From the NCBI GenBank assembly GCA_001816585.1, contig MHCJ01000006.1, forward strand, positions 40 to 64,039: a stretch of 64,000 nt of DNA, written 5' to 3'. Below the pieces are notes generated by a model. That model had not been told where the DNA came from and did no database searches. It saw nothing but the letters and a program-made list of their open reading frames with translations. Shown in pieces: positions 2,857 through 55,291 of this stretch. Position 1 is the stretch's first letter; the number at the start of each line of letters is the position of its first letter. The DNA comes from Candidatus Chisholmbacteria bacterium RIFCSPHIGHO2_01_FULL_52_32 (GTDB taxonomy: Bacteria; Patescibacteriota; Microgenomatia; UBA1400; Chisholmbacteraceae). The position numbers were made by a program, and so were the translations under genes.

Positions 2857-3594
2857 CTACTGAAGTGCCTGGTCGATCATGCTTTTGAAGTTTGCAAACG
2901 GCATCGCCCCAACCAGAATCTTCCCGTTGATATAAAAGCCCGGTGTCCCCCCGATCCCAAGCTCCTGAGCTAAGGCAACATCCTTCAACACTTGATCTTG
3001 ATGGGTACCATCCTTAAGACAGGCCGAAAGCTCTCCGCCATTAAGCCCGAGCGAACTCCCAAAGCCAAGGAACGCATCCGTCGGATCTCCGGTCGACCAT
3101 TCCTCCTGTTTCCCAAACAGGAGATCATGCATTTCCCAATACTTTCCCTGATCCCCGGCGCATCGTGCAAGCTGGGCTGCCGAAGGGGCATTAGGATGAT
3201 TCGGTAGTGGAAAATCCCGAACGAGATATTTGACCTTGCCCGTCTGAATGTAGTCCTTCTCAATCTGCGGCAGCGTTTCATCGAAATGTCTCTTACAATA
3301 GGGACACTGATAATCGGTGAACTCAACGATCGTAACCCGCGCGCCATCTTTACCTTGGGAAACAGCTGACTCGGAGATAACCCTCTGCCACTGTTCTTCG
3401 GAAAGAGTCTCTGAAGCCTGTGGCTGTGCCGATCCGACTTGCTGATTTTGCGCTCCTGGTGTCTGTACGGAAGATCCCGCAGGGGATCCCCCCTTCTTAA
3501 GCAACTCCACTTGCCCTTGGTACCGTCCCAGCAAAAACACCACTACAATCAGAAGTCCAACAAGCAGAGGCAGAAGTTTTACAGGAATTTTCAT
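2857..3594 (-). CDS. DsbA-like thiol:disulfide oxidoreductase with thioredoxin fold and an N-terminal signal/TM.
   Basis: CPYC active-site motif (DYQCPYCKRHF) and an N-terminal hydrophobic segment. Confidence 0.75.
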   Translation of the reverse strand: MKIPVKLLPLLVGLLIVVVFLLGRYQGQVELLKKGGSPAGSSVQTPGAQNQQVGSAQPQASETLSEEQWQRVISESAVSQGKDGARVTIVEFTDYQCPYCKRHFDETLPQIEKDYIQTGKVKYLVRDFPLPNHPNAPSAAQLARCAGDQGKYWEMHDLLFGKQEEWSTGDPTDAFLGFGSSLGLNGGELSACLKDGTHQDQVLKDVALAQELGIGGTPGFYINGKILVGAMPFANFKSMIDQALQ

Positions 3595-3661: not shown

Positions 3662-4978
3662 TTAGAAATTCCCTTTGCCCTCTGCCCTATGCCCCCTTAG
3701 CATCATTGCATCCGCCACCCGTTGCACCGCTAGGATGTACGCCGCCGTGTGGAGGTCAACCTTCTTTTCCTGGGCCAATTCCCAAACAGCCGCAAAGGCA
3801 GCCTCCATGATCTCTCCTAATCGTTCAAACACCAATGTTTTTGTCCAATAGTATCCGGACAGATTCTGGACCCATTCAAAATAGGAGGCCGTCACTCCTC
3901 CGGCATTCGCGAGGATGTCGGGAACCAGGACGACGCCTTTCTTTCGAAGCACCACGGCAGCGGCTTCCGTCACAGGTCCATTAGCCATCTCAATGATCGC
4001 CTTGGCTCGAACCGACTGAACGTTATGGATGCCAATTACTCCCTCCATCGCTGCCGGTACCAGCACATCGACATCAAGTGTCAATAGCTCGTCGTCCGAT
4101 ATCGCCTTTCCATGACGAAGATCACAAACGGACCCGACGCAATAACAGCTGGCGATCTTCCCTTTCTCTTCCTTACAAGCCAGGGTTAGCTGTGGATTCA
4201 ATCCCTTGGGCACGGATACGGCTCCTTTGCTATCTCCTGCAGCCACAACGGTAAACCCTGCCTTATCCGCAAAGTGGGCAAACCAGTATCCGACATTCCC
4301 GAAACCCTGGATTGCGATGGTCGCGTGTCGCTTTTTCAGACCGAGTTTCGCGGCCAGGAGCTTAAGGATAATCGACCCGCCAAATCCGGTTGCCTCTTCT
4401 CTCCCTAACGAACCGCCCAATGCTACCGGCTTCCCCGTAATAACTGCGTAAGGGCTTTCATCATTTTGACTTTTGACTTTTGACTTTTGACTTTGAATTT
4501 TTTGGTACTCATCCACCATCCAAGCCATAATCTGGGCATTCGTATTCAGATCCGGCGCCGGGACATCCTTCCATGCCCCAAAATAGGGCGCAAACACCCG
4601 CATGTAGGCTCGGGAAAGGCGTTCAAGCTCGCCCGATGAAAGGGTCTTGGGATCAACCACAACACCACCCTTCGCCCCGCCGAAAGGGATACCGACCACG
4701 GCGCACTTCCAGGTCATCCACAGGGAAAGCGCCTTCATCTCTGCCTCATTCACTTGAGGGTGATAGCGGATCCCTCCCTTAAACGGGCCCCTGGCATCGT
4801 TGTGTTGGCTGCGAAATGCGGGGAACTTCCGTATCTTCCCGTCATCCATCTTCACGGATAGCAACTTCCTAATAAATCTTTTCGGAAACTTAAGTTGCTC
4901 AACCATGTCCGCCGGAGCATCCAGATACGGCCTCGCTTCCTCAAGCTGTTTGATAGCATCCTGGTATGGATTCTCCAT
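3662..4978 (-). CDS. gdhA: Glutamate dehydrogenase, NAD(P)+ dependent.
   Basis: Full-length GDH signatures: KGGIRYHP, the GIPFGGAKGG glycine-rich region, and an NAD-binding GFGNVG. It carries an in-frame repeat insert, QKSKVKSQ. Confidence 0.9.
   Translation of the reverse strand: MENPYQDAIKQLEEARPYLDAPADMVEQLKFPKRFIRKLLSVKMDDGKIRKFPAFRSQHNDARGPFKGGIRYHPQVNEAEMKALSLWMTWKCAVVGIPFGGAKGGVVVDPKTLSSGELERLSRAYMRVFAPYFGAWKDVPAPDLNTNAQIMAWMVDEYQKIQSQKSKVKSQNDESPYAVITGKPVALGGSLGREEATGFGGSIILKLLAAKLGLKKRHATIAIQGFGNVGYWFAHFADKAGFTVVAAGDSKGAVSVPKGLNPQLTLACKEEKGKIASCYCVGSVCDLRHGKAISDDELLTLDVDVLVPAAMEGVIGIHNVQSVRAKAIIEMANGPVTEAAAVVLRKKGVVLVPDILANAGGVTASYFEWVQNLSGYYWTKTLVFERLGEIMEAAFAAVWELAQEKKVDLHTAAYILAVQRVADAMMLRGHRAEGKGNF
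4464..4503. repeat. Tandem heptamer repeat (TTTTGAC)x4 plus degenerate units, inside gdhA and in frame. Encodes SQKSKVKSQN.
   Basis: Direct reading: ttttgacttttgacttttgacttttgactttgaattttttg. Confidence 0.85.
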
Positions 4979-6031: not shown

Positions 6032-6382
6032 TTAGCGAAGAGACCTCTTAAAAGAAACTAACTTACGCGACAACATATCTGCTTTTTCGTAAAGATGATG
6101 TCTTTCCCTCTCCTTTAAGTATCCTTGCTTTTCGGCAATAAGCAAATGAGATGCTGTTTCAAACAAGCTCTTACGAGCATAATCTAAATAGTTCTTGTTG
6201 TCTTTTATCGTAGCTGCCGCTGAACCCTCTGCAATATTCGCAGGGATAGAAACAGCACTCCTCCATATCTGAGCGGTTAAACTGAAGAGCTCGCTTTTCG
6301 GCCATAACTTGGTCAAGAGATAAACTTCGCTGACAAAGTCGGCCGCCAGCCTCCAAACATCCAAAGTCTCAAACCGAAACAT
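6032..6382 (-). CDS. Four-helix-bundle protein (23S rRNA intervening-sequence-protein-like family).
   Basis: 116 aa. The motif content (WRLAADF..., ...IAEG...) resembles the family of proteins encoded within 23S rRNA intervening sequences. Recognised from memory, not searched. Confidence 0.55.
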   Translation of the reverse strand: MFRFETLDVWRLAADFVSEVYLLTKLWPKSELFSLTAQIWRSAVSIPANIAEGSAAATIKDNKNYLDYARKSLFETASHLLIAEKQGYLKERERHHLYEKADMLSRKLVSFKRSLR

Positions 6383-6412
6383 ACTCTTTCCCTACGCTCT
6401 CTGCCCTATGCC

Positions 6413-6739
6413 CTATGCCACTTTCTTGATCAATTCTTCGTACCCGGCCTTTCCACCGAACCCAATCTTCCGCTCCACCTCTTTCCCGTCCTTAAAAAGG
6501 ATAACGGTCGGAATACTCATCACTCCATGGACGACCGCCTGCCCATTGTTCTCATCCACATTAAGCTTCCCGATCTTAACCTTCCCGGCATACATTTGGG
6601 AAAGCTCATCGACAACCGGCGCGGCCATCCGACAGGGCCCGCACCACTCCGCCCAAAAATCCACCAATACAGGCAGAGGGCTCTTCAAAACCTCCTCCTC
6701 AAAGTTCTCATCAGTAATAGTGACAGTGGTAACCGCCAT
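6413..6739 (-). CDS. trxA: Thioredoxin.
   Basis: WCGPC active site, 108 aa. Confidence 0.9.
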   Translation of the reverse strand: MAVTTVTITDENFEEEVLKSPLPVLVDFWAEWCGPCRMAAPVVDELSQMYAGKVKIGKLNVDENNGQAVVHGVMSIPTVILFKDGKEVERKIGFGGKAGYEELIKKVA

Positions 6740-7027: not shown

Positions 7028-7133
7028 ATTGAAAGTTAGTAACTTTTAACTTTTGACTTTAAACTTTTAACTGTTGAAATACTCCCCCCCAGTATATAGC
7101 CGAAGCTTCATCCTGTCAAGGAAGAAATAAACC

Positions 7134-9432: not shown

Positions 9433-9903
9433 CTACTCTCCCTCGAGAACCACCGGATCCCCAAGCTTCACCCCATGCCGCTCGGCCCAACCGCTGTTGA
9501 CCTCAAGCACCCACGTGGCCGGCAACCAGGTTGAGACCCGGGTCTCCGTACCATCCTCCCCTTCCCCCGGCGCTGGCACTTTGTGGGCAATATCAACCAC
9601 CTTCCCCTGATTGATAAACAGCATATCCAAAGGAAAGCGCATACCCTTCATCCAAAACGTCCGCCGCACCGACTCATCGGAGACAAATAACATCCCCTCT
9701 TCTTCTAAAAGACTCTCCCGACCGGAAAGCCCCTGACTCCATTCCTCCGGCGTCTTCGCCATTTCAACCGCAACCACATTCTCCCCAATCCGCAAACGGC
9801 CCATTTCAACAGGCACAATCCTCTCAAACTTACCGAAGCGTATAACTCCGGCTATAATGATCACTATAAAGAGAAGAAGGATAAATAATTTAGTTCCTCT
9901 CAT
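9433..9903 (-). CDS. DUF192-family protein.
   Basis: 156 aa with an N-terminal TM/signal. The motif content (GLSGR...LEEEGMLFV, ...MKGMRFPLDMLFI...) is DUF192-like. Confidence 0.5.
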   Translation of the reverse strand: MRGTKLFILLLFIVIIIAGVIRFGKFERIVPVEMGRLRIGENVVAVEMAKTPEEWSQGLSGRESLLEEEGMLFVSDESVRRTFWMKGMRFPLDMLFINQGKVVDIAHKVPAPGEGEDGTETRVSTWLPATWVLEVNSGWAERHGVKLGDPVVLEGE

Positions 9904-10840
9904 ACGACCTTTTTCTATTCAATGAGTATAATAATAACCCACCAAGAACAATCGATAAAACACCCATCCCCTGGGCAACATTAATCCCAAAAATAGCCCA
10001 CTGACTAATCCGTAACACCTCAAGCCCAAATCGACCCGCCCCATACAGTATAAGATACACGAAAAAATAGCTCCCTGCATGCAAGCGGAACCTCTTCCTC
10101 CAAATCAAAAACAGAACACCGAAAACGCCAAGCGAATACAGCGATTCGTAGAGGAAAAGGGGATGAAAATGGGTAAAATCCTCAAAACCGGCCATCCGAA
10201 ACTCGGGCGGGATAAAAAGACCCCAGGGAAGATCAGTCGGTTTCCCGTAGAGCTCCCGATTAAAAAAGTTTCCCCACCTCCCGATCGCCTGCCCAATCGG
10301 CAAGCCGAACGCCGCCAGATCAGAAAAAGCTAAAAATCGGTTCCTTACGCATTCAGAAAAGAGCGCGGACGTCTTTTCGTGCAGCGAACTACGGCCAGGC
10401 TGAAAGCCTGCCAGGCTTAACAACGAAGAAAGCTTCTCTAACCAAACCTTAGGAAACAAACGAAAAGTATGTCCGCGCTCACGACGGCATAACCACCAGC
10501 AAAACATCCACAATCCAAAGATCCCTCCGGCAATCGCCCCAAAAATCCCAAGCCCCCCCGTCCAAAGAGCGGGAATCAGGGCGAGGTGTTCCCGATAGTA
10601 CTCCCACAGATCGACTACATGATAGATACGCGCCCCAACAATCCCAGGTACCACCACCCACCACAACGATCCCCAAACATCGTTTGGGGATAATTCGAAT
10701 TTCGAATTTCGAATTTCGAATTTTCGCGCGAAGCGCGAGGCCACCCAAAATCCGACCAGAATCCCCAGTCCTACGAGAAGACCATAGGGGTGAATCATCA
10801 GTGAGAAAGTTTCCATTCTGCTTCCTCTATTGTAGCCCAA
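9890..10840 (-). CDS. lgt: Prolipoprotein diacylglyceryl transferase.
   Basis: Polytopic, with the Lgt signature region (...GRWGNFFNRELYGKPTDLPWGL...). An in-frame repeat insert, ARKFEIRNSKFEL, sits near the N-terminus. Confidence 0.8.
   Translation of the reverse strand: MGYNRGSRMETFSLMIHPYGLLVGLGILVGFWVASRFARKFEIRNSKFELSPNDVWGSLWWVVVPGIVGARIYHVVDLWEYYREHLALIPALWTGGLGIFGAIAGGIFGLWMFCWWLCRRERGHTFRLFPKVWLEKLSSLLSLAGFQPGRSSLHEKTSALFSECVRNRFLAFSDLAAFGLPIGQAIGRWGNFFNRELYGKPTDLPWGLFIPPEFRMAGFEDFTHFHPLFLYESLYSLGVFGVLFLIWRKRFRLHAGSYFFVYLILYGAGRFGLEVLRISQWAIFGINVAQGMGVLSIVLGGLLLYSLNRKRSYERN
10693..10726. repeat. Tandem heptamer repeat (ATTCGAA)x4, inside lgt and in frame.
   Basis: taattcgaatttcgaatttcgaatttcgaattttcg. 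Confidence 0.85.
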
Positions 10841-15939: not shown

Positions 15940-17331
15940 CTAAAACAACGACATCTGAGTATCGGGCTCCGAAGCTTCTTCTCCAAAGATCTCAACCTTC
16001 CCAAAAACTCCATCGTAGCCAGGGCGGATTGAAATATTACCGTTTCGTACTTTTCGAATCGCCTCCCCTAAACGCTCTCCTTTAAACCGGGCTAATTCCT
16101 CAAGGGAAATCTGAAGCAGCACTGCAAACTCGCTTCCGAACTTTGTAACCAAAGAATGGTACTCACTAAGTACAGTATTACTTGATACACCAGAATGATA
16201 AACTTCACTTAATATCTCCAGCAGGGGAACAAGCATGACAAAAGGCGGCCGCGTTTCGTCTGACGGATGAGAAAGAGAAGTCACACCAACTGTATCCGAC
16301 TTCCGCGCGGTCGTTAAAGCGAATAACTCGTGATCGCTTAACTGGTCAACCCTGTACATCACCCCGACCGTCAGCGGTCTCCCGCAGACATGGCAGATAA
16401 CCCCTCGCTTTCGTGTCTCCTCCGGCGATTGAATAACCCCACAACTGCGATGTCCATCATAATGGTACTTCCCCTCCTCCGGATAGAATTCGATTGTAGA
16501 GGCAATCTGAAGCTTCCCCTCGTTCCTCCCCAAAAAACGTTCCGCAATCGCCCAATAAATATCGTTGTATTCAAAATTTGTCATTTGTAATTTGTCATTT
16601 GTCATTCCGTTTTTCTCCTGAAAAACGGTGGCCTCTCTTCCCAATTTCGGCCCGGAGTGGGCATCAGAGAATGACACGATCGCCCGCCTTTGAAGCTCGC
16701 TGATCCTCCAGTTCATAAGGGGGTCCGAAGAAAGACCGGTTTCCACCGCAAAAATCGATCCCGCCAAGTCCCCGAAACAGTCATCAATGGAGTCAAAGCC
16801 ACTTTTCGAGCCGTACAGACTAAACCACGGCGTCCACGCATGAGCCGGAATCACAAGACATCGCTGACTGACGGAAAACGCGATTTCTGCAATATCTCTT
16901 GCGGAAAGCCCGACAATGGGCCGGCCATCGGAGGCAAGATTACACCCCCGCTTCAAAAGCTCTGCGTTGATCCGCTCTGCTATCGCAAAGTCGGGAGCAA
17001 ACACAAGGGTATGAACCCTATGCGACTTTCCTCCCTGCGTGTAGATACTCGATATCTCCGCCGAAAGCAAAAACTTCACCTCACCCTGATCTCCTGGTCC
17101 CACCGCAACTTTTGACTTTTGACTTTCAACTTTTAACTGATAGATGCCCTCGCTCACCTCCTCAAGTTGACTTTGGATCTCCCGAAACCAAAGCGTATGC
17201 ATCCAATCTCCAGTGGCAACCAGATCAATACCCTTTCTCCTCGCCCATGACACAATTTCCGAAAGATCCATATTTTTTGAAACTGCCCGGGAATATTTTG
17301 AGTGAAGTTGAAGATCGGCGATAAGTTCCAC
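15940..17331 (-). CDS. PHP-domain (polymerase/histidinol-phosphatase-like) metal-dependent phosphoesterase.
   Basis: The N-terminal ADLQLHSKYSRA...DLVATGDWMH is a PHP signature. Two in-frame heptamer inserts: LKVESQKSKV and MTNDKLQMTNFE. Confidence 0.6.
   Translation of the reverse strand: MELIADLQLHSKYSRAVSKNMDLSEIVSWARRKGIDLVATGDWMHTLWFREIQSQLEEVSEGIYQLKVESQKSKVAVGPGDQGEVKFLLSAEISSIYTQGGKSHRVHTLVFAPDFAIAERINAELLKRGCNLASDGRPIVGLSARDIAEIAFSVSQRCLVIPAHAWTPWFSLYGSKSGFDSIDDCFGDLAGSIFAVETGLSSDPLMNWRISELQRRAIVSFSDAHSGPKLGREATVFQEKNGMTNDKLQMTNFEYNDIYWAIAERFLGRNEGKLQIASTIEFYPEEGKYHYDGHRSCGVIQSPEETRKRGVICHVCGRPLTVGVMYRVDQLSDHELFALTTARKSDTVGVTSLSHPSDETRPPFVMLVPLLEILSEVYHSGVSSNTVLSEYHSLVTKFGSEFAVLLQISLEELARFKGERLGEAIRKVRNGNISIRPGYDGVFGKVEIFGEEASEPDTQMSLF
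16576..16607. repeat. Tandem heptamer repeat (ATTTGTC/ATTTGTA), inside the PHP gene and in frame.
   Basis: atttgtcatttgtaatttgtcatttgtcattc. Confidence 0.8.
17108..17138. repeat. Tandem heptamer repeat (ACTTTTG/ACTTTCA/ACTTTTA), inside the PHP gene and in frame.
   Basis: acttttgacttttgactttcaacttttaact. Confidence 0.8.
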
Positions 17332-22113: not shown

Positions 22114-23880
22114 CTACTTGCCCTGCAACTGGTAAAGCGTGCTCACTTCTGCCATTGTCGTTGCCTGCCCGGGACCTTTATCATCGCGGAAGCGTACGAG
22201 CCTTGGAAACCGCAAAGCGAGCCCGGCGGAGTGTACCGGAGAGCGAGTGATGTTATCAGCCGCAATCTCAACCACAAGTGAAGGACGGGTCCAAATATCT
22301 GGCGCAAGAGTCTTCCCGATGTCTCCGTACTCCTTCGGCTTATCCGAAACAGCCAAACGATCAGCCCGAAGCCTCAGCTCTTTCCATTGTTCATCCGAAA
22401 GTCCGGTACCGATTTTGGAAATGGTGACAAAGTGCCCGCCTTTCGGAATCCCAACCAAAAAACCTCCGATGCCAAAACTCGCCCTTTTCCCCCGACCGCG
22501 ATAATAGCCCATCACGACGCAATCTAACGTATCGGAAAGCCCGGCAGTTCTCTCCTCAGCTTCCTTGTACTTCACCCAACTCCACCCACGTCTGCCCGGA
22601 GAGTATGGGGCGTTCCACTTTTTAACCACCGCTCCTTCTAGCCCCGCCGTAAGTTGCTTGGCATGAAACTGACGAAGCACGTTCGGATCTTCGGTCACGA
22701 TGCGCTCGGTCTTCATTAACACTTTCCCTCCAGCAAGAGTCTGCTCAAGAAGGGCGGCCCGATTGGAAAGAGGCAGATGAAGGAGGCTCCTTCCGTCCTT
22801 ATAAAGAATGTCAAAAACGAAAAACCGCAAAGGGACTTTCGCTGCTGCTTCGAGAATCGCGTGCTTCCGCTTTCTGGTGATGATCTCTTGAAACGGGAGA
22901 ATTTTACCGGAAGAAGTATCATACGAAACGGCCTCACTATCCAAAATAACTTCACGGGCAGACAGATCAGCGGTAATCCTCCCAAGCTCCGGAAACATAA
23001 ACGACACTTCCTCCAAATTCCGCGTAAACGCCCTCAAGAACACTCCCTTCGCTTTGCCCTTTGCGCTTTGCCCTTTGCGCTTTGCCCAGTGTATCTGCAC
23101 CCGCTGTCCGTCGTATTTTGGTTCCACCGCCACCCTGCCCATTTTCGCAATCATTTCTTGAGGAGATTTTAGCCGCTGGCAGAGTGCCGGCATAACGGGA
23201 ACACCGAGCTTCGCCGCAATACCCGAAAGGCCTGAAACGCCCTTTTTCTTAAAAAGCGCCGCAATCGCTCCGATATCAGCCCGCACGAAATAGGCCTGCT
23301 CAAGCCGCGGCCGCAAAGTTTTCGTTCCCGTCTTCATCCACGAAAGCGCGTCCAAAATAGTCACATCCGAAAACCCCAGTCGAAGTCGACCCAACACCAT
23401 CCGGACAACATATTTGCAGCTTACTGAATCGAGTTCATGAAGAAGCAAAACAAGTCCTTCTATCTTCCGCTGTTGACTCCCCTCCCCGTTTTCTTCCGCA
23501 ATCTTCCGCAATCTCCCATAGACCTCTAACATGGACAGTTTTGAGCTTCGAGTTGTAGCTATAACTTTTAACTTTTCACTTTTAACTTTTAACTTTTCTG
23601 CCACTTCCCCCAAATCCCCGACCTCCTTATACGTTTCCCTGACCCGATCTTCAGAAACGTTAAAAGCCTGCCCGATCACCCGAATGATCATCTTTTCTGC
23701 CAGCTGAAATTCTAATGGCTCGTAAAGCGGCGCCAATCTTCCCAAGGAAAGATAACAGAGAATAGCAATTTCCGTACTGGAAGCAGAGGAAAATAAATCA
23801 GCCAGAACCTCAGTGATTGCAAGTCGTGAGGTTATCCCTTCGAGTTTGGCAAAAAAGGAAGACAGTGTTGCAAAAGTCAT
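22114..23880 (-). CDS. ATP-dependent DNA ligase.
   Basis: Motif I KYDGQR (adenylation lysine) and an OB-fold C-terminus. Contains two in-frame repeat inserts: SAKGKAKG and KLKVKSEKLKV. Confidence 0.85.
   Translation of the reverse strand: MTFATLSSFFAKLEGITSRLAITEVLADLFSSASSTEIAILCYLSLGRLAPLYEPLEFQLAEKMIIRVIGQAFNVSEDRVRETYKEVGDLGEVAEKLKVKSEKLKVIATTRSSKLSMLEVYGRLRKIAEENGEGSQQRKIEGLVLLLHELDSVSCKYVVRMVLGRLRLGFSDVTILDALSWMKTGTKTLRPRLEQAYFVRADIGAIAALFKKKGVSGLSGIAAKLGVPVMPALCQRLKSPQEMIAKMGRVAVEPKYDGQRVQIHWAKRKGQSAKGKAKGVFLRAFTRNLEEVSFMFPELGRITADLSAREVILDSEAVSYDTSSGKILPFQEIITRKRKHAILEAAAKVPLRFFVFDILYKDGRSLLHLPLSNRAALLEQTLAGGKVLMKTERIVTEDPNVLRQFHAKQLTAGLEGAVVKKWNAPYSPGRRGWSWVKYKEAEERTAGLSDTLDCVVMGYYRGRGKRASFGIGGFLVGIPKGGHFVTISKIGTGLSDEQWKELRLRADRLAVSDKPKEYGDIGKTLAPDIWTRPSLVVEIAADNITRSPVHSAGLALRFPRLVRFRDDKGPGQATTMAEVSTLYQLQGK
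23052..23086. repeat. Tandem heptamer repeat (CTTTGCC/CTTTGCG)x5, inside the ligase gene and in frame. Encodes an AKGKAKG-type peptide.
   Basis: ctttgccctttgcgctttgccctttgcgctttgcc. Confidence 0.85.
23563..23598. repeat. Tandem heptamer repeat (AACTTTT/CACTTTT), inside the ligase gene and in frame.
   Basis: aacttttaacttttcacttttaacttttaacttttc. Confidence 0.85.
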
Positions 23881-24144
23881 GACCCTAAACCCTCTACCCT
23901 AAACCCTCTACCCTCATTCAATTTAAATCTGCCGCAAAACGATATACGCGAGAATAACAACAACGATAAACAGGGACCCAAATATCAAGCTTAACCATCC
24001 TCCTAAATCACTCTTAACAAGTTTGTGCAAGCCCTCCCCGATAAGGGTAAACCCAAACAGGCTTGGAATAATAAGGACCATATAAAGTAACTGAGGATCA
24101 GAAAAATCAATCATCCGCCTCCGCTGTTTATGGACGCCTTCGTG

Positions 24145-39723: not shown

Positions 39724-39865
39724 TCGCTGCCGGAGGAATTATACCACCGACCCCTCTACCCTACTTGCCCGACGAAGCATCCAGAATGGAGTCTTGACTA
39801 ATGATCAAGACGGAATCTCTGGAGCAGAGGCGGGAACCCTATACGCTAAACGCTAGACGCTATTC

Positions 39866-42193: not shown

Positions 42194-42326
42194 ATCTGAT
42201 AACCTTCCCTCTCTTTGCTCTCCCAGTGAAGTAACGCTCCGCGTACTTCACGGGATCCCGTGAGATATAAAAGTTATCTCACTGGGATCTGCTCTACGCC
42301 CTATGCTCTATGCTCTAAGCTCTCTG

Positions 42327-42827
42327 CTATTTCTTCCCAAGAGCATATTTCTTTGCCATCCGAATGCACCACTCCGCCAGCCAGCGAATGCTGTCAAACA
42401 GCTTGTAATGAAGTCCCTTCTTAATGCCCGTATCGTCAAGCGGCAACGTGACACTCACTGCCTGCGGCGCTGCCGGGGAAACAATCGGCTTCCCCTTATG
42501 AACGATAACCGGCGGTTCCGCCACCTCATCCTTTTCCACCCGCTCAAGCCATCCCTCCACATCCGGAGGAAGCTCCTTGGGAGGACCAATTTCAACAATC
42601 GGATGTGTTTCCGTCGGACTCACTCCTGTACTTGGTTCCTTCTCTTTTGCGGCCGTCGGTTGACCTGCCTGTGGTTGAGAGCCTGACGGCGCCTCAATCA
42701 CCTTCCCCGCCTCTTGCGGTACCACCCCGGCTTGATCTGTTTGTGACGAAGGCGGCCCAACGGAAGAAGGCTGTGCACTTGAAGGTAATCCGCCCTCAGC
42801 ATTCCCTTGCCCACCAGGTGTATCCAT
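42327..42827 (-). CDS. Hypothetical Pro/Gln-rich protein.
   Basis: 166-aa ORF with low-complexity P/Q/S-rich N-terminal two thirds. Confidence 0.35.
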   Translation of the reverse strand: MDTPGGQGNAEGGLPSSAQPSSVGPPSSQTDQAGVVPQEAGKVIEAPSGSQPQAGQPTAAKEKEPSTGVSPTETHPIVEIGPPKELPPDVEGWLERVEKDEVAEPPVIVHKGKPIVSPAAPQAVSVTLPLDDTGIKKGLHYKLFDSIRWLAEWCIRMAKKYALGKK

Positions 42828-43425: not shown

Positions 43426-44025
43426 TCAAAAATCCAAGCCCTTCACGGCTTTCCTGCCCCGATCATACGGATGCTTGATTTTTCGCATCTCGGTCACCAG
43501 ATCCGCAAGCTCCACAATTTTTGGATGTGCACCTCTTCCTGTCAACACCAAATGTGTCTTCTCCCTATCAGAAATTAGGTCAATTAGAGCACTTAGGTCA
43601 ATTAAGCCGTCAGAGACGGCGTTATTAACCTCATCCAAAATCAGCATATCAACCTGTCCTACCAGCTCCTTTGCTTTCCGAAGTGCCGCCTTCGCCGCTT
43701 TCTTATGCTCATTCTCCCCCGCCCGATCCACAACCACCCCACCGCCAGCAATCGGAGCGGTTTTGATCTGCCTTCCTCTCTGATTCATAATTCCTGATTC
43801 ATAATTCGTGATTCTAAAACCCACACCCATTGGAAATACCTTGAAGTTAGGAAATTGATCCGCTAATCGATACTCGGAAACATCCCAGTCTCTGCTCTTG
43901 TACCAACAAACCATCACAACCGTCATTCCGGAGAGTGCCGCCCGCACCCCTACTCCCAACGCAGCAGAAGTTTTCCCCTTTCCGTTCCCTGTGAATACGT
44001 AAACAAGTCCTTTTTGAATAGTCAT
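43426..44025 (-). CDS. Cob(I)yrinic acid a,c-diamide (corrinoid) adenosyltransferase, CobA/BtuR type.
   Basis: P-loop GNGKGKTSAALG... and a CobA-type N-terminus. Contains an in-frame 14-nt x2 tandem duplication (RITNYESGIMNQ). Confidence 0.7.
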   Translation of the reverse strand: MTIQKGLVYVFTGNGKGKTSAALGVGVRAALSGMTVVMVCWYKSRDWDVSEYRLADQFPNFKVFPMGVGFRITNYESGIMNQRGRQIKTAPIAGGGVVVDRAGENEHKKAAKAALRKAKELVGQVDMLILDEVNNAVSDGLIDLSALIDLISDREKTHLVLTGRGAHPKIVELADLVTEMRKIKHPYDRGRKAVKGLDF

Positions 44026-44112
44026 TCTAAACCCTAGACGCTAAACCCTAAACGCTACTGACAATTGTTGCATTTTTCTCCACTTATCGTTGCATCCAGA
44101 CGAAAAGTGCTT

Positions 44113-45271: not shown

Positions 45272-47587
45272 CTACACTTCACAAACGCTGTACCCGCACA
45301 GCTGGCACTTTGAACAACCCTCGGTAAACGACATCGGTCCGCCGCATTCCGGACACTTGCCCCCTTCCGTCTCACCCACCCCAAAAGAGGCCGCCCGTAC
45401 CGCAAGCGGTGTGACAGAAAGTTTGCTCTGAATCCGAACACTCTTCGATTCCTTCTCAAGGATCTGCACCGACTTGCTTTTATCCCGATAGATCGTGATC
45501 CCTTTACACCCCATCTTCCAGGCTAACCGATAGGCCTTTTCGACATCCTCGATCACTGCCGATTCCGGAAAGTTGATCGTCTTGGAAACCGCATTATCGG
45601 TGTATTCCTGAAACGCCCCCTGCATTCGCACATGCCATTCTGGAGAAATATCATGGGCAGTCCGGAAAACATCCTTTATCCACTGTGGAATACCCAAAAC
45701 GGAGGTAACGCTCCCCGTTTTTGAGACTTCATGAAGGAGAGGTTCAATTGCGCTCCGCTCACCGTTTCCAACCGCACCAGCCAGCGCCTGTTCAAAAGAA
45801 GTGTTCATATACGTCAACCCTTCCTGATCTACAACGTTTTTCACAAATGAAAGAGCAAAGATCGGCTCGATCCCGGATGAGCAATCGGCAACCATGCTGA
45901 TCGTCCCTGTGGGGGCTATGGTCGTGACGGCAACATTCCGCACTTTCACTCGCTTCCCCAAATGCGGATGCTTTCGTGCAAAGTCGCTCTTCTCCCATAG
46001 CGGGAACGCACCCTTCTCCGCAGCAATCCTCGCGCTTTCATCCCATCCGATCCTCTGAATGAACTGCGCCACTTTCTTTGCCAAACGAACAGCTTCCTCG
46101 CTGTCGTATCGGACACGAAGCGAAACTAATAAATCCGCCCATCCCATCACCCCGAGGCCAATCCGACGGACATTATGTGCCATGGCGCTGATTTGAGGAA
46201 TGGGATAAAAACTCGCATCAATCCCGTCATCCAAGAACCGTACCGCTATTCGCACGACCTCCTCCAACCGCTTCCAATCAATGAGGTCTTCTGTTTTACC
46301 CTTTGCCCTTTGCCCGCTTGTCCTGAGCGAAGTCGAAGGATTGCCCTTTGCCTTTTTAACAAACTTCCCCAAATTAACAGACCCTAAGTTGCACACGTCA
46401 AACGGATGAAGCGGTTGTTCCCCGCAAACATTGGTTGCCGTAATAGGCCCAAGAGCCTTAAGAAGCGGGTTATCTCGATTGATCGCATCAAGATAAATCA
46501 TTCCCGGATCGCCGGTTTTCCATGCCAAAGCAACAGCCTGGTCAAACACCGTCCGCGCCTTCGTTCGCCGTACGACCGCGCCCGTACGCGGATTCACCAA
46601 ATCCCAATGACCATCCTTCTCAACCGCTCCCATGAACGCATCACTCGCCCCCACCGAAATATTGAAGTTGCCAATTTCCCCTTCCTGCGTCTTGCAGGTG
46701 ATAAATTCAAAAATATCCGGGTGGTCGGCATTCAGGATGCCCATGTTAGCCCCGCGGTGGCGCCCTCCAAGCATCACGATCTCCGTCGCCGCATCAAACG
46801 CCTTCATAAACGAAACGGGCCCTGAGGCAAATCCGCCGCCACCGACCGCATCTCCGTTCGGTCGAAGCTTGGAAAAATTGTAACCAGTCCCCCCACCCGA
46901 CTGATGAATGAGTGCTGTCCACTTCACCGCATCAAAAATTGCCTCCATGTCATCCTCAACCGGTAACACGAAGCAATTTGCGAGTAGCCCCCGTTTTTGC
47001 CCGGCTCCCCGAAAGTAACAACCTGCCGGAACAAAAGAAAACGTGCTCATTATCTCGCTAAATTTTTGCTCCCAAGCCTTACGCTGACGCTTCTCGACTG
47101 CGGAAACACAAGCAGCCACTCGCTCCACCGCTTGTCGGGGCGTTTCAACCACATTCCCCCGTTCATCTTTGAGAAGATAACGCCTGGCCATTGCCTTGAG
47201 AGCATTGACGGACATCCCGAGGTCATCCTCAACGCCCAACACGTTCCGCACTGTCCGCAGCTCCGCTTGTCGTTGTCGGAAGAGGATGTACGCCTTCGCC
47301 GTACGGTAGTGAGACCCCGCCATCAATACCTGCTCTACGATATCCTGCACCTGCTCAACAGTCGGAATCACCTTTCTCGCCCCTCGAAGCCCTGGCGAAG
47401 TGGGGCCATTGGTTCGCCGGAGAAGTTCAATCACAATACTCGTCAGCCGCTTCGCTTCAATTTCCCCGAACTCGCCGGTTACAGCCGAAGATTTTAAGAT
47501 CGCAATGGTGATCTTGGCGGGATCAAACGCTACCACCCCTCCATCGCGCTTTCTGATCTGCTTAATGGCGAAAGCGTTATCTGCCAT
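45272..47587 (-). CDS. nrdJ: Class II (adenosylcobalamin-dependent) ribonucleotide reductase, paralog 1, with an N-terminal ATP-cone and C-terminal Zn-ribbon.
   Basis: ATP-cone (IRKRDGGVVAFDPAKI), a catalytic core with NLGSVNL, the PTGTIS motif, and a C-terminal CPECGG...C..C..C. An in-frame insert AKGNPSTSLRTSGQRAKGK matches the interspersed repeat core. Confidence 0.85.
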   Translation of the reverse strand: MADNAFAIKQIRKRDGGVVAFDPAKITIAILKSSAVTGEFGEIEAKRLTSIVIELLRRTNGPTSPGLRGARKVIPTVEQVQDIVEQVLMAGSHYRTAKAYILFRQRQAELRTVRNVLGVEDDLGMSVNALKAMARRYLLKDERGNVVETPRQAVERVAACVSAVEKRQRKAWEQKFSEIMSTFSFVPAGCYFRGAGQKRGLLANCFVLPVEDDMEAIFDAVKWTALIHQSGGGTGYNFSKLRPNGDAVGGGGFASGPVSFMKAFDAATEIVMLGGRHRGANMGILNADHPDIFEFITCKTQEGEIGNFNISVGASDAFMGAVEKDGHWDLVNPRTGAVVRRTKARTVFDQAVALAWKTGDPGMIYLDAINRDNPLLKALGPITATNVCGEQPLHPFDVCNLGSVNLGKFVKKAKGNPSTSLRTSGQRAKGKTEDLIDWKRLEEVVRIAVRFLDDGIDASFYPIPQISAMAHNVRRIGLGVMGWADLLVSLRVRYDSEEAVRLAKKVAQFIQRIGWDESARIAAEKGAFPLWEKSDFARKHPHLGKRVKVRNVAVTTIAPTGTISMVADCSSGIEPIFALSFVKNVVDQEGLTYMNTSFEQALAGAVGNGERSAIEPLLHEVSKTGSVTSVLGIPQWIKDVFRTAHDISPEWHVRMQGAFQEYTDNAVSKTINFPESAVIEDVEKAYRLAWKMGCKGITIYRDKSKSVQILEKESKSVRIQSKLSVTPLAVRAASFGVGETEGGKCPECGGPMSFTEGCSKCQLCGYSVCEV
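46297..46352. repeat. In-frame insert inside nrdJ paralog 1: CTTTGCC heptamers flanking the cctgagcgaagtcgaagga element core.
   Basis: ccctttgccctttgcccgcttgtcctgagcgaagtcgaaggattgccctttgcc. Confidence 0.75.
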
Positions 47588-48516: not shown

Positions 48517-48553
48517 TCTAACTTTTAACTTTTCACTTTAAACTTTAAACTTT
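48517..48553. repeat. AT-rich heptamer tandem repeat, intergenic and overlapping the nrdJ paralog 2 stop.
   Basis: aacttttaacttttcactttaaactttaaactttaca. Confidence 0.8.
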
Positions 48554-50821
48554 ACAGTAGCTATATCCGCAATTCGCGCACGTCGCACACCCTTCGCTAT
48601 ACGTGAGTTCGCTACCGCACTCCGGACAAGCTGTCCCTTCCCTTGACGCCTTCTCTCCCATCGACCGGGGTACTTTCGCTTCCGCAAGGTTCAACACTTG
48701 ATCCGTCTTGCTTCCGTCCCGATAAATAGTAATACCCTTGCACCCGAGCCTCCAGGCCAAAAGGTAGGCCTCTCGGACATCCCGGGCACTTGCTCCTTGA
48801 CGAAAGTTGATCGTTTTTGAAACCGAGTTATCGCAGTGTTTCTGCCACGCAGCTTGAATCTTCACATGCCAAGGCCAGTCGATGTCGTGGGTCGTAACGA
48901 ATACGTCCCGCATCCGCTTCGGCAGTCCCCGAAGACCGAGAAGATGGCCAAACTTGCTGAGGTGCTTGAACACATCCTCCCTGGTAACAGAAAGGGGGCG
49001 ACTCGCAATCTGCGCCTCCAGTACTTCCGAGAATACCGGATCAACGATGGTTAACGACTTCGTTGGACGATTCTTGCGATCGTCCTCATAGAAGGTACGC
49101 CGGGTAGTGAGGAGGGAAAACACCGGTTCAATTCCCGAAGAGCAATTGGCAAAAAGACTGATAGTTCCCGTAGGAGCTATGGTCAGCATCGTGGCATTCC
49201 GATAGCGCTCCGACGTCCCCGAATAAAAGCTCATGTCAAAATTGGGGAACACCCCGCGCTTCTTCGCCAACTCCAAAGAGGCGGCTTCCGCCTCCTTCTG
49301 AATGAACTTTCCCAAATGATCGGCCATCTGAACAGCCAAAGAAGAGTTATAAGGGATTCCCATACGGTACAAAAGATGGGCAAATCCCATGACCCCCAAC
49401 CCGATCTTCCGATTCCCAAACCGTACGATCCGCTCAATTTCAGGCAGAACGTAGGTATTCGCCTCAATCATGTCATCCAAAAAGCGAATCACCGTCCGAA
49501 CCGTCCTCCCCAACTCATCCCAATCAACTTCCCACCCAAATGGGTCATCGGCTTTCTTTCTCCGAAGGTGCGAGGAGAGGACGATGGAGGAAAGATTACA
49601 GCTTTCAAAGGGTAATAGCGGCTGTTCCCCGCAGGGATTTGTCGCATCAAGCTTCCCCAGTGTCGGTGTCGGATTGTCCTGCTCTAGTCGATCCAAAAAG
49701 ATCATCCCCGGATCCCCGGTTTTGTGGGCAAATTCGACAATTGCCCAAAAAAGCTCTGAGGCCTTCATGGTTTTTTGCACTTCTCCCGTTCGCGGATTCG
49801 TAAGATTCCACGGCTTTCCCTTCACCACCGCCTCCATAAATGCATCCGGCGCGCCCACGGAAATGTTGAAATTTTTGATGTTTCCGTCCGTCGCTTTAAT
49901 CTTGACGAATTCCAAAAGGTCAGGATGATCGGCATTGAGAATGGCCATGTTCCCCCCCTGTCGCTTTGCTCCCTGAAGAATCTTAGACAGTGCCGCCGAA
50001 TAGGCCTGCAGAAAGTCAACCGGACCGCTGGCTGCCCCCGGAACGTTTTTGACCTTATCGCCCCGCGGCCGGATCTTCGAGAAGTTGAATCCCGTACCGC
50101 CGTTGTTCTTATGGACTAAAGCCGCCTCCCCCAACGTCTTAAAAATCGCCGCAATACTATCCTCAATCCCCAACACAAAACAGGCAGACAGCTGTCCCGT
50201 TCCCCCGTCGTTACCCGCCTCAAACATCGCCTTTCCCGAACAAATAAAGCGGAAGTTGACCATGCGGTCAAAAAACTCCCGTGCCGTCCGCTCCACATCC
50301 CGTTCATCCCCCCAGGCAATCTCTGCCTTGGCGATAGATCGTGCCACCCGCCAAAGCATCTGCCCCGCAGACTCGACCGGCCGTCCCTTCATGTCGGTAC
50401 GGACATACCGTTTTGTCACAACCGCAAGAGAGTGATCCGCCAAAACGGGTTCCCGGATCTGCCAAGTGTCTTTCCTTTGCCCCTTATGAGTCCCGTACAA
50501 AATATAGTACTTGGCTGTCGCAAAATACCCGGCTTTGGCTATCGCAGGTTCAACGAGGTTTCGTATCTCAAGAACGGTAACCAGTCGCCGATCCCGAAGA
50601 TCGCTACGGAGCACGTTGATAACTCCATCGATGATCCCCTGAGCCCCGGCCTCTGAATACTCACCGGTGTCCGATCCGGCTGCCACCACACTCGCCTCAA
50701 TCTTCGAAAGTAAAAATGGCTCAATCCGTCCGTCTTTCTTGCGAACCTGCAAAGATTTTGGGAAAGGTTGTTTGCGAAAACCGAAAGGTTGAACGGGTTT
50801 TCGAGGGTAAAGTAGCTGCAT
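48545..50821 (-). CDS. nrdJ: Class II ribonucleotide reductase, paralog 2, with an ATP-cone and C-terminal Zn-ribbon.
   Basis: ATP-cone (VRKKDGRIEPF), NLSSIVL, PTGTIS and CPECGS...C..C..C. Confidence 0.85.
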   Translation of the reverse strand: MQLLYPRKPVQPFGFRKQPFPKSLQVRKKDGRIEPFLLSKIEASVVAAGSDTGEYSEAGAQGIIDGVINVLRSDLRDRRLVTVLEIRNLVEPAIAKAGYFATAKYYILYGTHKGQRKDTWQIREPVLADHSLAVVTKRYVRTDMKGRPVESAGQMLWRVARSIAKAEIAWGDERDVERTAREFFDRMVNFRFICSGKAMFEAGNDGGTGQLSACFVLGIEDSIAAIFKTLGEAALVHKNNGGTGFNFSKIRPRGDKVKNVPGAASGPVDFLQAYSAALSKILQGAKRQGGNMAILNADHPDLLEFVKIKATDGNIKNFNISVGAPDAFMEAVVKGKPWNLTNPRTGEVQKTMKASELFWAIVEFAHKTGDPGMIFLDRLEQDNPTPTLGKLDATNPCGEQPLLPFESCNLSSIVLSSHLRRKKADDPFGWEVDWDELGRTVRTVIRFLDDMIEANTYVLPEIERIVRFGNRKIGLGVMGFAHLLYRMGIPYNSSLAVQMADHLGKFIQKEAEAASLELAKKRGVFPNFDMSFYSGTSERYRNATMLTIAPTGTISLFANCSSGIEPVFSLLTTRRTFYEDDRKNRPTKSLTIVDPVFSEVLEAQIASRPLSVTREDVFKHLSKFGHLLGLRGLPKRMRDVFVTTHDIDWPWHVKIQAAWQKHCDNSVSKTINFRQGASARDVREAYLLAWRLGCKGITIYRDGSKTDQVLNLAEAKVPRSMGEKASREGTACPECGSELTYSEGCATCANCGYSYCKV

Positions 50822-50881: not shown

Positions 50882-52852
50882 CTAGGTCGAGCTGCAAAAA
50901 CTATAGGAGCAGTTTGGGCAAGTCGCACAGCCTTCATGAAAGACCATCGGCGTTTTACACTCCGGGCAAAGACCGCTATCTCCATTGGTCACCACGTAGT
51001 GATGGGAAACACCCCCATTCCCTCCCTCTCGATGCCCATTTCCGGAAGGGAAAGAATCTGCCGCTGCGACCATGGCTTTGGAGGCGGCAACGGTATCAAC
51101 GGTTTCCGACGCCGCAGTCCCTTGCCCCAAATGCAGCACCTGCTGATCCCGACTCCGATCCCGATAAATCGTAATCCCCATGCATCCGCTCTCGTAAGCG
51201 GAAAGGTAGGCCTGGTAAACATCCTCAACCGTTGCCGATGAGGGCAAATTGATGGTCTTTGAAACCGCACTATCCACATGGTGTTGCCACGCCGCTTGCA
51301 TCCGGACATGCCACCCATAGGAAATGTCATGGCTGGTAACGAAAACCTTTGCTAAATCCAAAGGAACGCCGGAAACACCTTGGCAGCCTCCCGTCCTTGA
51401 GACTTCATCCAAAATGCGATTAAAGACGGGTCGCTGCCGAACGCGCCGCGACAATGCCCGCGAAAACGCGGCGTTGAACTCAACCATCTCGGTCTTTCCG
51501 ATTTCAAGGATGTTGCGGCGGGTGTATGACAAGGCAAACAGGGGCTCAATGCCCGACGAACAGGAAGCTAAGATACTGATCGTCCCCGTCGGAGCAATCG
51601 TGGTAATGGTCGAATTCCGGATTGCTTGGTATCCTTCCTTCTCCCATCGGCTGCCGCGAAATGCCGGGAAAGAACCTCGTGATCGGCCCAGGACAACCGA
51701 TTCTTCACGAGCCACCCGTTCGATGAACCTGGCCAACCTCTCGGCCAAAACCAACCCGCGCGTCGAGTTATAAGGAATACCAAGGTCAACGAGAAGATCC
51801 GCAAAACCCATGACCCCCAACCCGATCTTGCGGGTCTTGAGAGACATCTCCGTAATCTCGGAAAGGGGATAATCACAAACGTCAATCACGTTATCCAAAA
51901 ACTTAACGGCCAGCCGTACGGTCCGCTCCAGTTTTCTGAAATCGACGCTCCTCTTTCCCCCTGCCACGCGGACGAACTTTGCCAGATTCACCGACCCTAA
52001 GTTGCAGCTCTGATAGGGCAAAAGGGGCTGCTCCCCACAAGGATTCGTCGCCTCAATCTCCCCAAGGTGGCGGATAGGGCAGGCTGCATTCATGCGGTCC
52101 AAAAAGACCAAGCCAGGATCCGCCACCTTCCATGCATTCTCACTGATAAGGTCAAGAATCGTCCGGGCAGCCACCTCACGAACAACTTTCCCGTCGTGAG
52201 GATCAATGAGGCTATACGTAGTGCCCTCGGAGACAGCCTCCATGAAGCGATCGGTAATCCCAACCGATACGTTGAAGTTCGTCAACCTCCCCCCATCCCT
52301 CTTTGCAGCAATGAATTCCTCGATATCGGGGTGATCAACGCGCAAAATTCCCATCATCGCCACCCGTCGACTCGAACCCTCGTTAATGACTTGTGCCATA
52401 TGATCAAAGAGGTCCATAAACGAAACCGGACCCGATGCCACCCCGCCGGTGGTCGAAACCGGAGATCCCCGCGGACGTAATTTGGAAAAAGAATACCCGA
52501 CACCCCCGCCGGTCCTAAGGACCAAGGCAGCATCATGGAGTGTCTTAAAAATACTCTCCAAGGTATCCTCAATCGGCAGGACAAAACACGCTGACAGTTG
52601 CCGAAAGCCATTGCGTCCCGCATGCATCAAGGTCGGCGAATTCGGCAAAAACTGAAAATCCGTCATGATTTCATAGAACGCGTGCGCATCCAGGGAAACG
52701 TCCTCTCCATAGGTTCCGCTTGCAGAAGCGACGCCATTGGCAACCCGCTTAAACATCTGTTCAGGGGTTTCAACGACATTCCCCGCCTGATCGCGACGCA
52801 GGTAATCGCGCTTCTTTAGAACGGTAATGGCATTCTCCGACAAACGAATCAT
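50882..52852 (-). CDS. nrdJ: Class II ribonucleotide reductase, paralog 3, with no ATP-cone and a C-terminal Zn-ribbon.
   Basis: Starts directly in the catalytic domain. NLGSVNL, PTGTIS and CPECKT...C..C..C. Confidence 0.8.
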   Translation of the reverse strand: MIRLSENAITVLKKRDYLRRDQAGNVVETPEQMFKRVANGVASASGTYGEDVSLDAHAFYEIMTDFQFLPNSPTLMHAGRNGFRQLSACFVLPIEDTLESIFKTLHDAALVLRTGGGVGYSFSKLRPRGSPVSTTGGVASGPVSFMDLFDHMAQVINEGSSRRVAMMGILRVDHPDIEEFIAAKRDGGRLTNFNVSVGITDRFMEAVSEGTTYSLIDPHDGKVVREVAARTILDLISENAWKVADPGLVFLDRMNAACPIRHLGEIEATNPCGEQPLLPYQSCNLGSVNLAKFVRVAGGKRSVDFRKLERTVRLAVKFLDNVIDVCDYPLSEITEMSLKTRKIGLGVMGFADLLVDLGIPYNSTRGLVLAERLARFIERVAREESVVLGRSRGSFPAFRGSRWEKEGYQAIRNSTITTIAPTGTISILASCSSGIEPLFALSYTRRNILEIGKTEMVEFNAAFSRALSRRVRQRPVFNRILDEVSRTGGCQGVSGVPLDLAKVFVTSHDISYGWHVRMQAAWQHHVDSAVSKTINLPSSATVEDVYQAYLSAYESGCMGITIYRDRSRDQQVLHLGQGTAASETVDTVAASKAMVAAADSFPSGNGHREGGNGGVSHHYVVTNGDSGLCPECKTPMVFHEGCATCPNCSYSFCSST

Positions 52853-54930: not shown

Positions 54931-55291
54931 TTGTAACTTGAACGCTAGCCCCTAATCGCTAGTCGCTACTCTGACTCCTGCTCGGGAGAAACATTGCGCC
55001 CACGACGTTCCTGACTTCCCCGCCCTTCGCGAAGAGCGGGGTTACAGTTGCGGCACAGCCACCAAGTCAGACTTGGTGACCCTGAAGTGATCCGCCAACC
55101 GGCGGATCTCCTTCAGGGCTCCCGACTAGACCTCGCAGTTGCCAGAGGCAACTTAAAGGGAATTCACGGGATTCCGTCGCGGAAACAAAAAGGTTGTCAA
55201 ATGCTAAAACCTAAAGATACCAGCCAAGCTTAAGCGGTGTCAACATGAGAAAGTATCTGAAAATTATCGCCACGGAAAAACCATAAGCCCA

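Follow-up and report, generated by a model that had tools for sequence, protein, structure and literature searches.

How does a tandem array of seven-nucleotide units, whose length is not divisible by three, come to lie within the reading frame of a core metabolic gene and to stay there? The question is raised by gdhA, the glutamate dehydrogenase (GDH) gene of Candidatus Chisholmbacteria bacterium RIFCSPHIGHO2_01_FULL_52_32, which lies in a 64-kb stretch of contig MHCJ01000006.1 that is hereafter called the window; positions are those of the window unless a relative is named. Heptanucleotide repeats are the commonest class of long simple sequence repeats (SSRs) in bacteria, their mechanism is unsettled, and they are held to be essentially non-coding, but the Chisholmbacteria lineage packs heptamers into the frames of core genes. 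The evidence presented below indicates that the GDH array is probably a coding heptanucleotide microsatellite that is maintained by slippage, with selection only filtering the outcomes, and that forms a mutational on/off hotspot.

The heptamer array in the GDH gene

The array is carried by an open reading frame (ORF) of 438 amino acids (3662..4978, minus strand) that encodes a GDH of the hexameric type known from archaea, Thermotoga, and Bacillus. Both ELFV dehydrogenase Pfam domains (E values of 2e-71 and 6e-54), the KGGIR and GFGNVG motifs, and a GDH fold place the protein in the ELFV hexameric type of ~420 amino acids, and the GDHs of Pyrococcus, Thermococcus, and Thermotoga with solved structures match it with E values of about 1e-120 (1e-121 for Pyrococcus/Thermococcus GDH). 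An AlphaFold2 model of the monomer, built from a 32-sequence alignment, reached a mean predicted local distance difference test (pLDDT) score of 92.3 and a predicted template modeling (pTM) score of 0.90, and Foldseek aligned it to the Thermococcus, Pyrococcus, and Thermotoga enzymes with TM scores of 0.86-0.91. The best sequence matches are all from Patescibacteria, including Pacebacteria and Woesebacteria, and the closest full-length homolog among 5.8 billion clusters is 74% identical.

Direct reading of the plus strand gives TTTTGAC x4 at 4464-4491 followed by TTT to 4494, a 31-nt perfect period-7 run. Tandem Repeats Finder delimits the same array (4464-4494; period 7; 4.4 copies; 100% matches; score 62), which reads (TTTTGAC)x4.4 on the plus strand and (GTCAAAA)x4.4 in the sense of the gene on the minus strand; with at least three head-to-tail copies, far beyond what chance would give, it is a heptanucleotide SSR. 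Degenerate units adjoin its 5' side up to 4505 (4495..4505, minus strand; TTTGAAT and TTTTTGG on the plus strand, CCAAAAA ATTCAAA in sense). A preliminary description of this DNA, made from its letters, had reported four perfect heptamers plus degenerate units in gdhA, in frame and upstream of TGKP in an otherwise canonical GDH, and all of this was borne out, including the peptide: the array spans codons 162-172 (QSQKSKVKSQN), and ITGKP follows at 180-184. The same description spoke of an extra loop. In the alignment to Pyrococcus GDH (1gtm), an 8-residue gap falls exactly at the array, and the loop has 22 residues, compared to 12 in insert-less relatives; the insertion is real, but the net gain is 8-10 residues rather than a whole decapeptide plus flanks.

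In the model, the repeat peptide begins in helix 148-165, which takes in its first residues and gives way to coil before the conserved AVITGKP strand. pLDDT falls below 50 only at residues 167-173 (the array peptide) and at 431-438 (an R and the AEGKGNF tail). The surface loop that had been suggested would fit the monomer model to the extent that a helix extension gives way to low-confidence coil at residues 167-173. The second low-confidence segment coincides with a second, degenerate heptamer array at 3671..3694 (minus strand; sense GGGCATA GGGCAGA GGGCAAA GGG), which encodes a C-terminal extension, GHRAEGKGNF (3665-3694), that is missing from homologs. The GGGCAnA unit family occurs again at 6390-6419, across the stop codon of the thioredoxin gene.

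Several assemblies break or show a gap at the array, as would be expected of an assembly or sequencing artifact. However, the identical full-length 438-aa protein (OGY17745.1 / OGY20713.1) is found on 11 contigs, under two NCBI metagenome-assembled genome (MAG) accessions, and in an SRA-derived entry, and therefore is not the product of a single assembly; moreover, the array does not disrupt the reading frame, and eight other organisms, known from independent studies, have homologous arrays. The artifact explanation is effectively refuted. Three further candidates were set aside. The array strand has no hairpin potential (minimum free energy, -0.3 kcal/mol; z, +1.1), so a structured DNA or RNA element is not indicated and was rejected. 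A G-quadruplex, as in the heptamers of Xanthomonas and Nostoc, was rejected because the GTCAAAA unit lacks G-tracts. Lastly, a coiled-coil reading of the 7-residue period was dropped, since the peptide, with 11 residues, amounts to only ~1.5 heptads and is modeled as low-confidence coil in its C-terminal half.

Orthologous arrays and unit-number alleles

Typical GDHs had been said to lack such a stretch, and at a distance this holds. No 7-residue periodicity was seen in the GDHs of other Patescibacteria classes, cyanobacteria, Bacillus, and Devosia, which have a 12-residue loop throughout, and a 12-residue loop without the stretch is also found in archaeal GDHs and in all solved structures; the insert is thus not conserved in distant GDHs. 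Nearer to the window the statement fails, since syntenic orthologs with 62-72% identity to the window protein carry arrays at the same place. DNA was compared for eight orthologs, six of which have a thioredoxin (Trx), thioredoxin reductase (TrxR), or DsbA gene next to GDH, and in all eight a near-perfect heptamer array is found after the DEY helix and before TGKP. When the loop is left out, mutual identity among the nine GDH proteins is 59-78%.

The units at this one site vary widely. AGTCAAA forms the array in the window (x4), in L081 (x3), and in L082 (x4), three lineages that are not sisters in the GDH tree; the remaining arrays consist of TGGCAAA x5 (L083), ATTCAAA x4 (L085), RCTCAAA x5 plus decayed units (L086), TGGAGAA x4 (L087), AGTCAGG/AGTAAGG x5 (AGTMAGG; L088), and AGCGTTC/AGCGTCT x4 (AGCGTYY; L089). 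The encoded peptides differ completely by lineage (SQKSKVK, WQMANGK, WRMENEE, SVQRLAS, VRSKESG), although all are hydrophilic. Because different units occupy the same site in diverged orthologs, it is the periodicity of the DNA, and not the peptide, that is conserved. Neutral positions are saturated at such divergence, and perfect arrays therefore cannot have been inherited passively but must be homogenized or rebuilt continually. At its 5' edge, the window array keeps one ATTCAAA unit, the unit of which the L085 array is homogeneously built, and the 3' flank GATGATGAA is common to both arrays; as far as the letters go, the leftover unit and the shared flank fit a turnover of units, through mutation and homogenization, that has apparently been caught in progress.

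A survey of the best 120 homologs, 104 of which have a recognizable loop, found 7-residue periodicity in 19 of those loops. Insert-less proteins have loops of 12 residues, most Patescibacteria have loops of 18-19, and the clade with arrays has loops of 20-41 and also includes members of similar loop length but decayed periodicity, among them the closest homolog, P0001. Relatives with ~14-21 kb of sequence contain just one or two strict arrays each, and the GDH site is always among them. A profile search of genome contigs with the GDH alignment returned, among the matches listed, only distant GDHs (≤53% identity), which served as negative controls.

A stable loop might suggest that the lineage needs a longer, hydrophilic, Lys-rich segment for solubility, regulation, or partner binding and that the repeat was merely the route by which it was built. 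The loop does in fact keep to a fairly constant length of 20-25 residues in the closest clade, including members whose periodicity is decayed (P0001, P0008-P0010, P0018), and the hydrophilic character common to all the loop peptides is in keeping with such a need. Yet the peptide sequence is unconserved while the 7-nt period of the DNA is conserved, insert-less orthologs exist within Patescibacteria (P0014, P0020, P0022, P0024), and the model predicts no ordered structure for the segment. The same enzyme offers a contrasting case: a 9-residue insert at residues 276-284 (4126-4152), common to patescibacterial GDHs and lacking in Pyrococcus GDH, has nearly invariant Cys278, Cys280, and Cys285 (C278-x-C280-x4-C285; IASCYCVGSVCD) and, unlike the heptamer loop, is conserved in sequence. 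That the array peptide is wholly different between lineages and the Cys-containing insert conserved argues that the peptide itself is not selected, and a selected structural or functional insert seems very improbable. The three cysteines may form a metal or disulfide site.

If whole units are gained and lost, alleles differing by multiples of 7 nt should exist in close relatives, and one was found. A MEGAHIT k141 contig from another sample (L090) is 97.9% identical to the window over 1176 nt but has two units where the window has four, a clean 14-nt difference, so that the alleles differ by whole units, as those of SSRs do. The resulting frameshift runs into the TGA of a TGATGA directly 3' of the array (4458..4463, minus strand), which is out of frame in the four-unit allele, and GDH is split into a 167-aa product and a second ORF. 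TGATGA supplies an immediate in-frame stop upon a change of -2 or +1 units. When -3 to +3 units were applied in silico, full-length GDH was obtained only at -3, 0, and +3, the others being truncated at residues 167-189; as in neuO, the unit is not a multiple of 3 and unit changes toggle the frame. The open (ON) allele is represented by 11 contigs and the interrupted (OFF) allele by one. Collapse by the assembler is an unlikely source of the two-unit allele, given that collapse of a 31-nt period-7 run at k=21 would remove 7 nt, not 14, and that the contig was assembled at k141.

Assembly behavior at the site suggests further unit-wise length variation beyond this one direct case. Three more records from this population are affected there: scaffold L084 has an N-gap at the array, scaffold L091 ends inside the array with error-like bases, and the protein record P0140 is an N-terminal fragment stopping at DEYQ. 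Variable-gap and exact 30-mer scans for the array flanks in metagenome contigs (JGI) gave no match and hence no allele series. In L084 (820-850), 21 nt of unrelated sequence (TCGGTGGTTGTGTGTAATAGT) adjoin the N-gap and are probably a mis-joined read end. L082 contains two further heptamer arrays, one a second coding array in its GDH gene (3181-3204), in which (AAAGCTT)x3.6 is read as KSLKLKAK in the linker after the GGSxGR motif, and the other in its TrxR gene ((CAAAATT)x3; 2288-2308).

Period-7 arrays across the window

The GDH array is not isolated. Strict arrays of period 7 number 12 in the window, against none or one for each other period from 4 to 12, and no strict array arose in 20 shuffles of the window. 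Their density is 0.19/kb, compared to 0.01/kb in a control of 1.31 Mb around 80 unrelated GDH genes, in which the few arrays are concentrated in cyanobacteria and one gammaproteobacterium. Nine of the 12 are intragenic: seven lie in housekeeping genes confirmed by Pfam, namely, those for GDH, Lgt, peptidyl-tRNA hydrolase (Pth), ATP-dependent DNA ligase (two arrays), and a GT4 glycosyltransferase (two arrays), and two more lie within one long ORF without a Pfam match. The Lgt array encodes KFEIRNSKFE, and the Pth array encodes LQNSKFKI. Weaker period-7 arrays, detected by Tandem Repeats Finder, occur in genes for a 5'-3' exonuclease, a RecF-like ATPase, and ribonucleotide reductase (RNR). Intergenic or gene-edge arrays (12 of 31) are a minority by count but are enriched relative to the space available, ~11% of the sequence by a crude map of longest ORFs, some of them spurious. 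Measured against solved homologs, the GDH array and the second ligase array are net insertions of 8 and 10 residues, respectively, and the Pth array and the first ligase array replace a variable segment with little change in length.

Relative positions of the intragenic arrays range from 0.12 to 0.88 with no bias toward the 5' end, which bears on the idea that the GDH array is an adaptive contingency locus, kept because gain and loss of units switch the enzyme off and on. There are precedents for such a switch. The neuO gene of Escherichia coli K1 contains a coding AAGACTC repeat, yields a full-length product only with multiples of 3 units, and has natural ON and OFF alleles (PMC13001214), and the GDH array is likewise a translated heptamer repeat whose full-length product depends on keeping the frame. 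A looser parallel is gudB(CR) of Bacillus subtilis 168, in which a perfect in-frame 18-bp direct repeat adds residues that render the enzyme inactive and unstable (PMC4285742, PMC3681913); there too, a GDH gene is active or not according to how many copies of a short perfect direct repeat its coding sequence contains. The frame behavior described above, in which only changes of three units are tolerated, the natural OFF allele in a 97.9%-identical strain, and the perfection of the array at this site across divergent orthologs would all suit a switch.

The differences are considerable, however. The neuO repeat has 3-53 units and lies at the 5' end of its gene, which is phage-borne, serves surface modification, and has had its switching measured (PMC13001214), whereas the GDH array has just four units and lies in the middle of a core metabolic gene. 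In contrast to gudB(CR), the GDH unit is 7 nt long, it is situated in a low-confidence and putatively disordered loop outside the conserved motifs, the repeat-bearing allele is presumably active, and it is loss of units that shifts the frame; the array is thus not an in-frame repeat that inactivates GDH. The allele on all 11 contigs is ON, and equivalent arrays are found in genes whose loss should be lethal or pointless (Pth, Lgt, DNA ligase, RNR). Such arrays in essential genes, with no 5' bias, disfavor an adaptive switch, which we consider quite unlikely.

Within 21 nt, translation passes through all three frames of a heptamer array. In five intragenic arrays, adherence to the consensus unit would place a stop in frame at every seventh codon, and all five depart from the consensus at every would-be stop codon (TGA>TTA, TAA>CAA, TAA>GAA twice, TAA>AGA, and TGA>AGA/GGA) and at a few other places. 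These deviations reveal a process at the DNA level that takes no account of coding, after which purifying selection acts to keep the frame open. Since GTCAAAA gives no stop in any of the three frames, the GDH array can stay perfect.

Two unit families, AAAGTNN and TAGSGYN in sense, cover more than half of the 31 window arrays, all in gene-sense orientation. The first (class A) includes the GDH unit and the arrays at 7040, 17107, 23562, 31029, and 48520, and the second (class B; TAGSGYN / nAGGGnn) includes those at 3671, 6390, 23882, 39835, 42290, 44027, and 54943. The intergenic class B arrays (TAGCGTN / TAGGGTN / nAGGGnn; 23882-23915, 44027-44057, 6390-6419, 39835-39862, 42290-42328, and 54943-54968) have a TAG in each unit, and several stop 1-7 nt before a downstream ATG (the ligase ATG at 23880 and those at 44025 and 6382), where the G-rich units could double as Shine-Dalgarno-like sequence.

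The recurrence of units raises the possibility that other arrays of the same genome serve as the source from which an array is installed or overwritten, whether through template switching, microhomology-mediated conversion, or a mobile mechanism. Such a route need not exclude slippage and would yield a dispersed family like the cyanobacterial heptamer arrays discussed below. Relative L089 (MAG GCA_022564195.1) has only two period-7 arrays in 14 kb, one in Lgt (1411-1440) and one in GDH (10483-10509), and both contain the identical 27-mer AGCGTTCAGCGTCTAGCGTCTAGCGTT, built of a class B unit and translated as SVQRLASSV; at the Lgt site, the window has AAATTCG x4, and L083 and L088 have no array. 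An identical two-base solution to stop avoidance in both L089 arrays suggests, from the letters, copying between loci. Within the window, an array that includes the GTCAAAA unit in an unrelated ORF (17107..17138 in ORF 15940..17331, minus strand) shares 19 identical nt with the GDH array, and the DNA ligase array and an array at the 3' end of an RNR gene have 20 nt in common, including the same variant unit. The concentration of units in two families, one of which (TAGCGTY) is common to the window and L089, and the occurrence of AGTCAAA in non-sister lineages lend themselves to the same explanation. On the other side, both L089 arrays are in the same phase and their variant units exactly avoid an in-frame TAG, so that part of the identity may reflect convergent selection; L088 has a native AAATTC-CAAATTG proto-repeat from which the window Lgt array looks to have grown in situ; neither target-site duplications nor terminal repeats nor a candidate enzyme was found; and the samples are small. 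Copying between loci is therefore a possibility that we regard as unlikely.

As an observation on the host gene, Lgt in the window (9890-10840) is ~60 residues longer than its orthologs; apart from the 7-residue heptamer insert, it has a 44-residue insertion (at about residues 121-164) that is missing from L083, L088, and L089.

Origin and maintenance of the arrays

Slippage-driven maintenance is the explanation that we prefer. The GDH array is one instance of a genome- and clade-wide population of period-7 arrays in Chisholmbacteria, a lineage of Microgenomates-type Patescibacteria. Gain and loss of whole 7-nt units would generate the arrays and keep their units homogeneous, with replication slippage as the most likely molecular route, to which the whole-unit difference between alleles, the lack of secondary structure, and the general SSR literature all point. 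Selection would act as a filter, passing those arrays whose total length keeps the frame, which contain no in-frame stop, and which fall at a site tolerant of an arbitrary hydrophilic peptide; in GDH, that site would be the coil between helix 148-165 and the AVITGKP strand. The peptide itself would be near-neutral and have no adaptive role. As 7 is not divisible by 3, unit changes other than ±3 destroy the gene, and the array is thereby an on/off hotspot for GDH.

Several points weigh against this explanation. Slippage is usually modest for arrays as short as four units, and the persistence of perfect arrays despite 30-40% protein divergence requires a high rate of homogenization or some other process. 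Unit identity does not follow the GDH tree, as the distribution of AGTCAAA shows; the identical 27-mer in the Lgt and GDH arrays of L089 is not predicted by pure in situ slippage; and the units found across the window are not arbitrary but belong to two families. Finally, the two-unit allele is known from a single contig.

A bolder proposal, which we put forward tentatively and hold to be doubtful, is that Microgenomates-type Patescibacteria run an active heptamer-array process, specific to certain sequence families, that continually rewrites tolerant loops of core proteins and leaders before start codons. Such a process could work through templated copying between loci or through a peculiarity of polymerase or repair with a 7-nt register. 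If so, arrays would endure at orthologous sites over very long times even as their units turn over, identical arrays would appear in unrelated genes of one genome, coding arrays would double as frameshift switches, and of such sites the GDH loop would be the one best preserved. A lack of MutS/MutL might conceivably drive the arrays; MutS and MutL were not among the window proteins scanned, which says nothing about the rest of the genome.

Parts of this picture are familiar from other systems. In the survey of Mrazek et al. (2007), as it is related in PMC4679880 and PMC4692102, heptanucleotide long SSRs (LSSRs) of prokaryotes are mostly non-coding and are proposed to result from polymerase slippage, coding regions are expected to have units divisible by three, and long repeats with units of 5-11 nt are most numerous in large genomes (Burkholderia spp., Cyanobacteria, Actinobacteria, Xanthomonas). 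Set beside that account, the arrays described here are alike in their head-to-tail 7-nt units, the dominance of period 7, and slippage as the proposed cause, but most of them, by count, are in frame inside housekeeping genes, and the host has a reduced patescibacterial genome. With the short tandemly repeated repetitive (STRR) and GGGNATC-type arrays of the cyanobacteria Calothrix and Nostoc (PMC4692102), they share dispersed heptamer families in which related units recur at many loci of one genome, a typical array size of about four units, and length variation between close relatives. Unlike STRRs, they belong to another phylum (Candidatus Chisholmbacteria), their units have no G-quadruplex potential, the GDH array is translated, and, where STRRs are predominantly intergenic, 9 of the 12 strict arrays are intragenic. 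The TAACTGA direct repeats of Beggiatoaceae are stop-carrying heptamers a few nucleotides upstream of start codons and have been proposed to serve as sites of a post-transcriptional regulator (PMC4679880); the class B arrays at 23882-23915, 44027-44057, and 6390-6419 resemble them in their stops and pre-start position, a likeness that concerns the intergenic class and not the GDH array and does not extend to the unit sequence. In Borg proteins, fast-evolving tandem repeats in genes create disordered segments (PMC9879509). The Chisholmbacteria arrays appear to share this outcome, but Borg repeats are longer, in frame by virtue of unit length, and carried on archaeal extrachromosomal elements (PMC9879509).

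SSRs with heptanucleotide units, STRRs, and a translated heptamer that acts as a switch (neuO) are thus already on record. Our literature searches turned up no description of heptamer repeats in Patescibacteria, the candidate phyla radiation (CPR), or Microgenomates. Nor did they yield a reduced patescibacterial genome whose core genes are densely populated with in-frame heptamer arrays, an array that has persisted over the long term at one orthologous coding site while its units turned over, footprints of stop avoidance, or a natural GDH allele that is out of frame. At the GDH site, nine or more lineages form a natural series that shares one location but comprises different units, arrays both perfect and decayed, and one allele that is out of frame, and through it the birth, homogenization, unit turnover, and decay of a bacterial microsatellite can be measured directly. 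The pattern also bears on the annotation and assembly of CPR genomes, in which contigs break recurrently and genes are split at arrays, and on the origin of disordered loops in conserved enzymes. Copying between loci, if true, would represent an undescribed DNA transaction.

Some minor features of the window complete the description. Throughout the window, the plus strand has a GC skew of -0.09 to -0.19, nearly all genes lie on the minus strand, and the arrays are uniformly oriented, with the purine-rich strand as the gene sense strand, except for one at 228-256; with genes, skew, and orientation so uniform, gene strand and replication strand are not separable here. Three paralogs of the RNR large subunit lie in a row on the minus strand (45272-47587, 48545-50821, and 50882-52852), two of them with ATP-cone domains; a GGGCAAA array (46295-46315) lies in one, and the stop codon of another is spanned by an AAAGTTn array (48520-48554). 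Between the thioredoxin and thioredoxin reductase genes lies a gene for a four-helix bundle of the 23S rRNA intervening-sequence-protein type (6032-6382), an arrangement also seen in L087.

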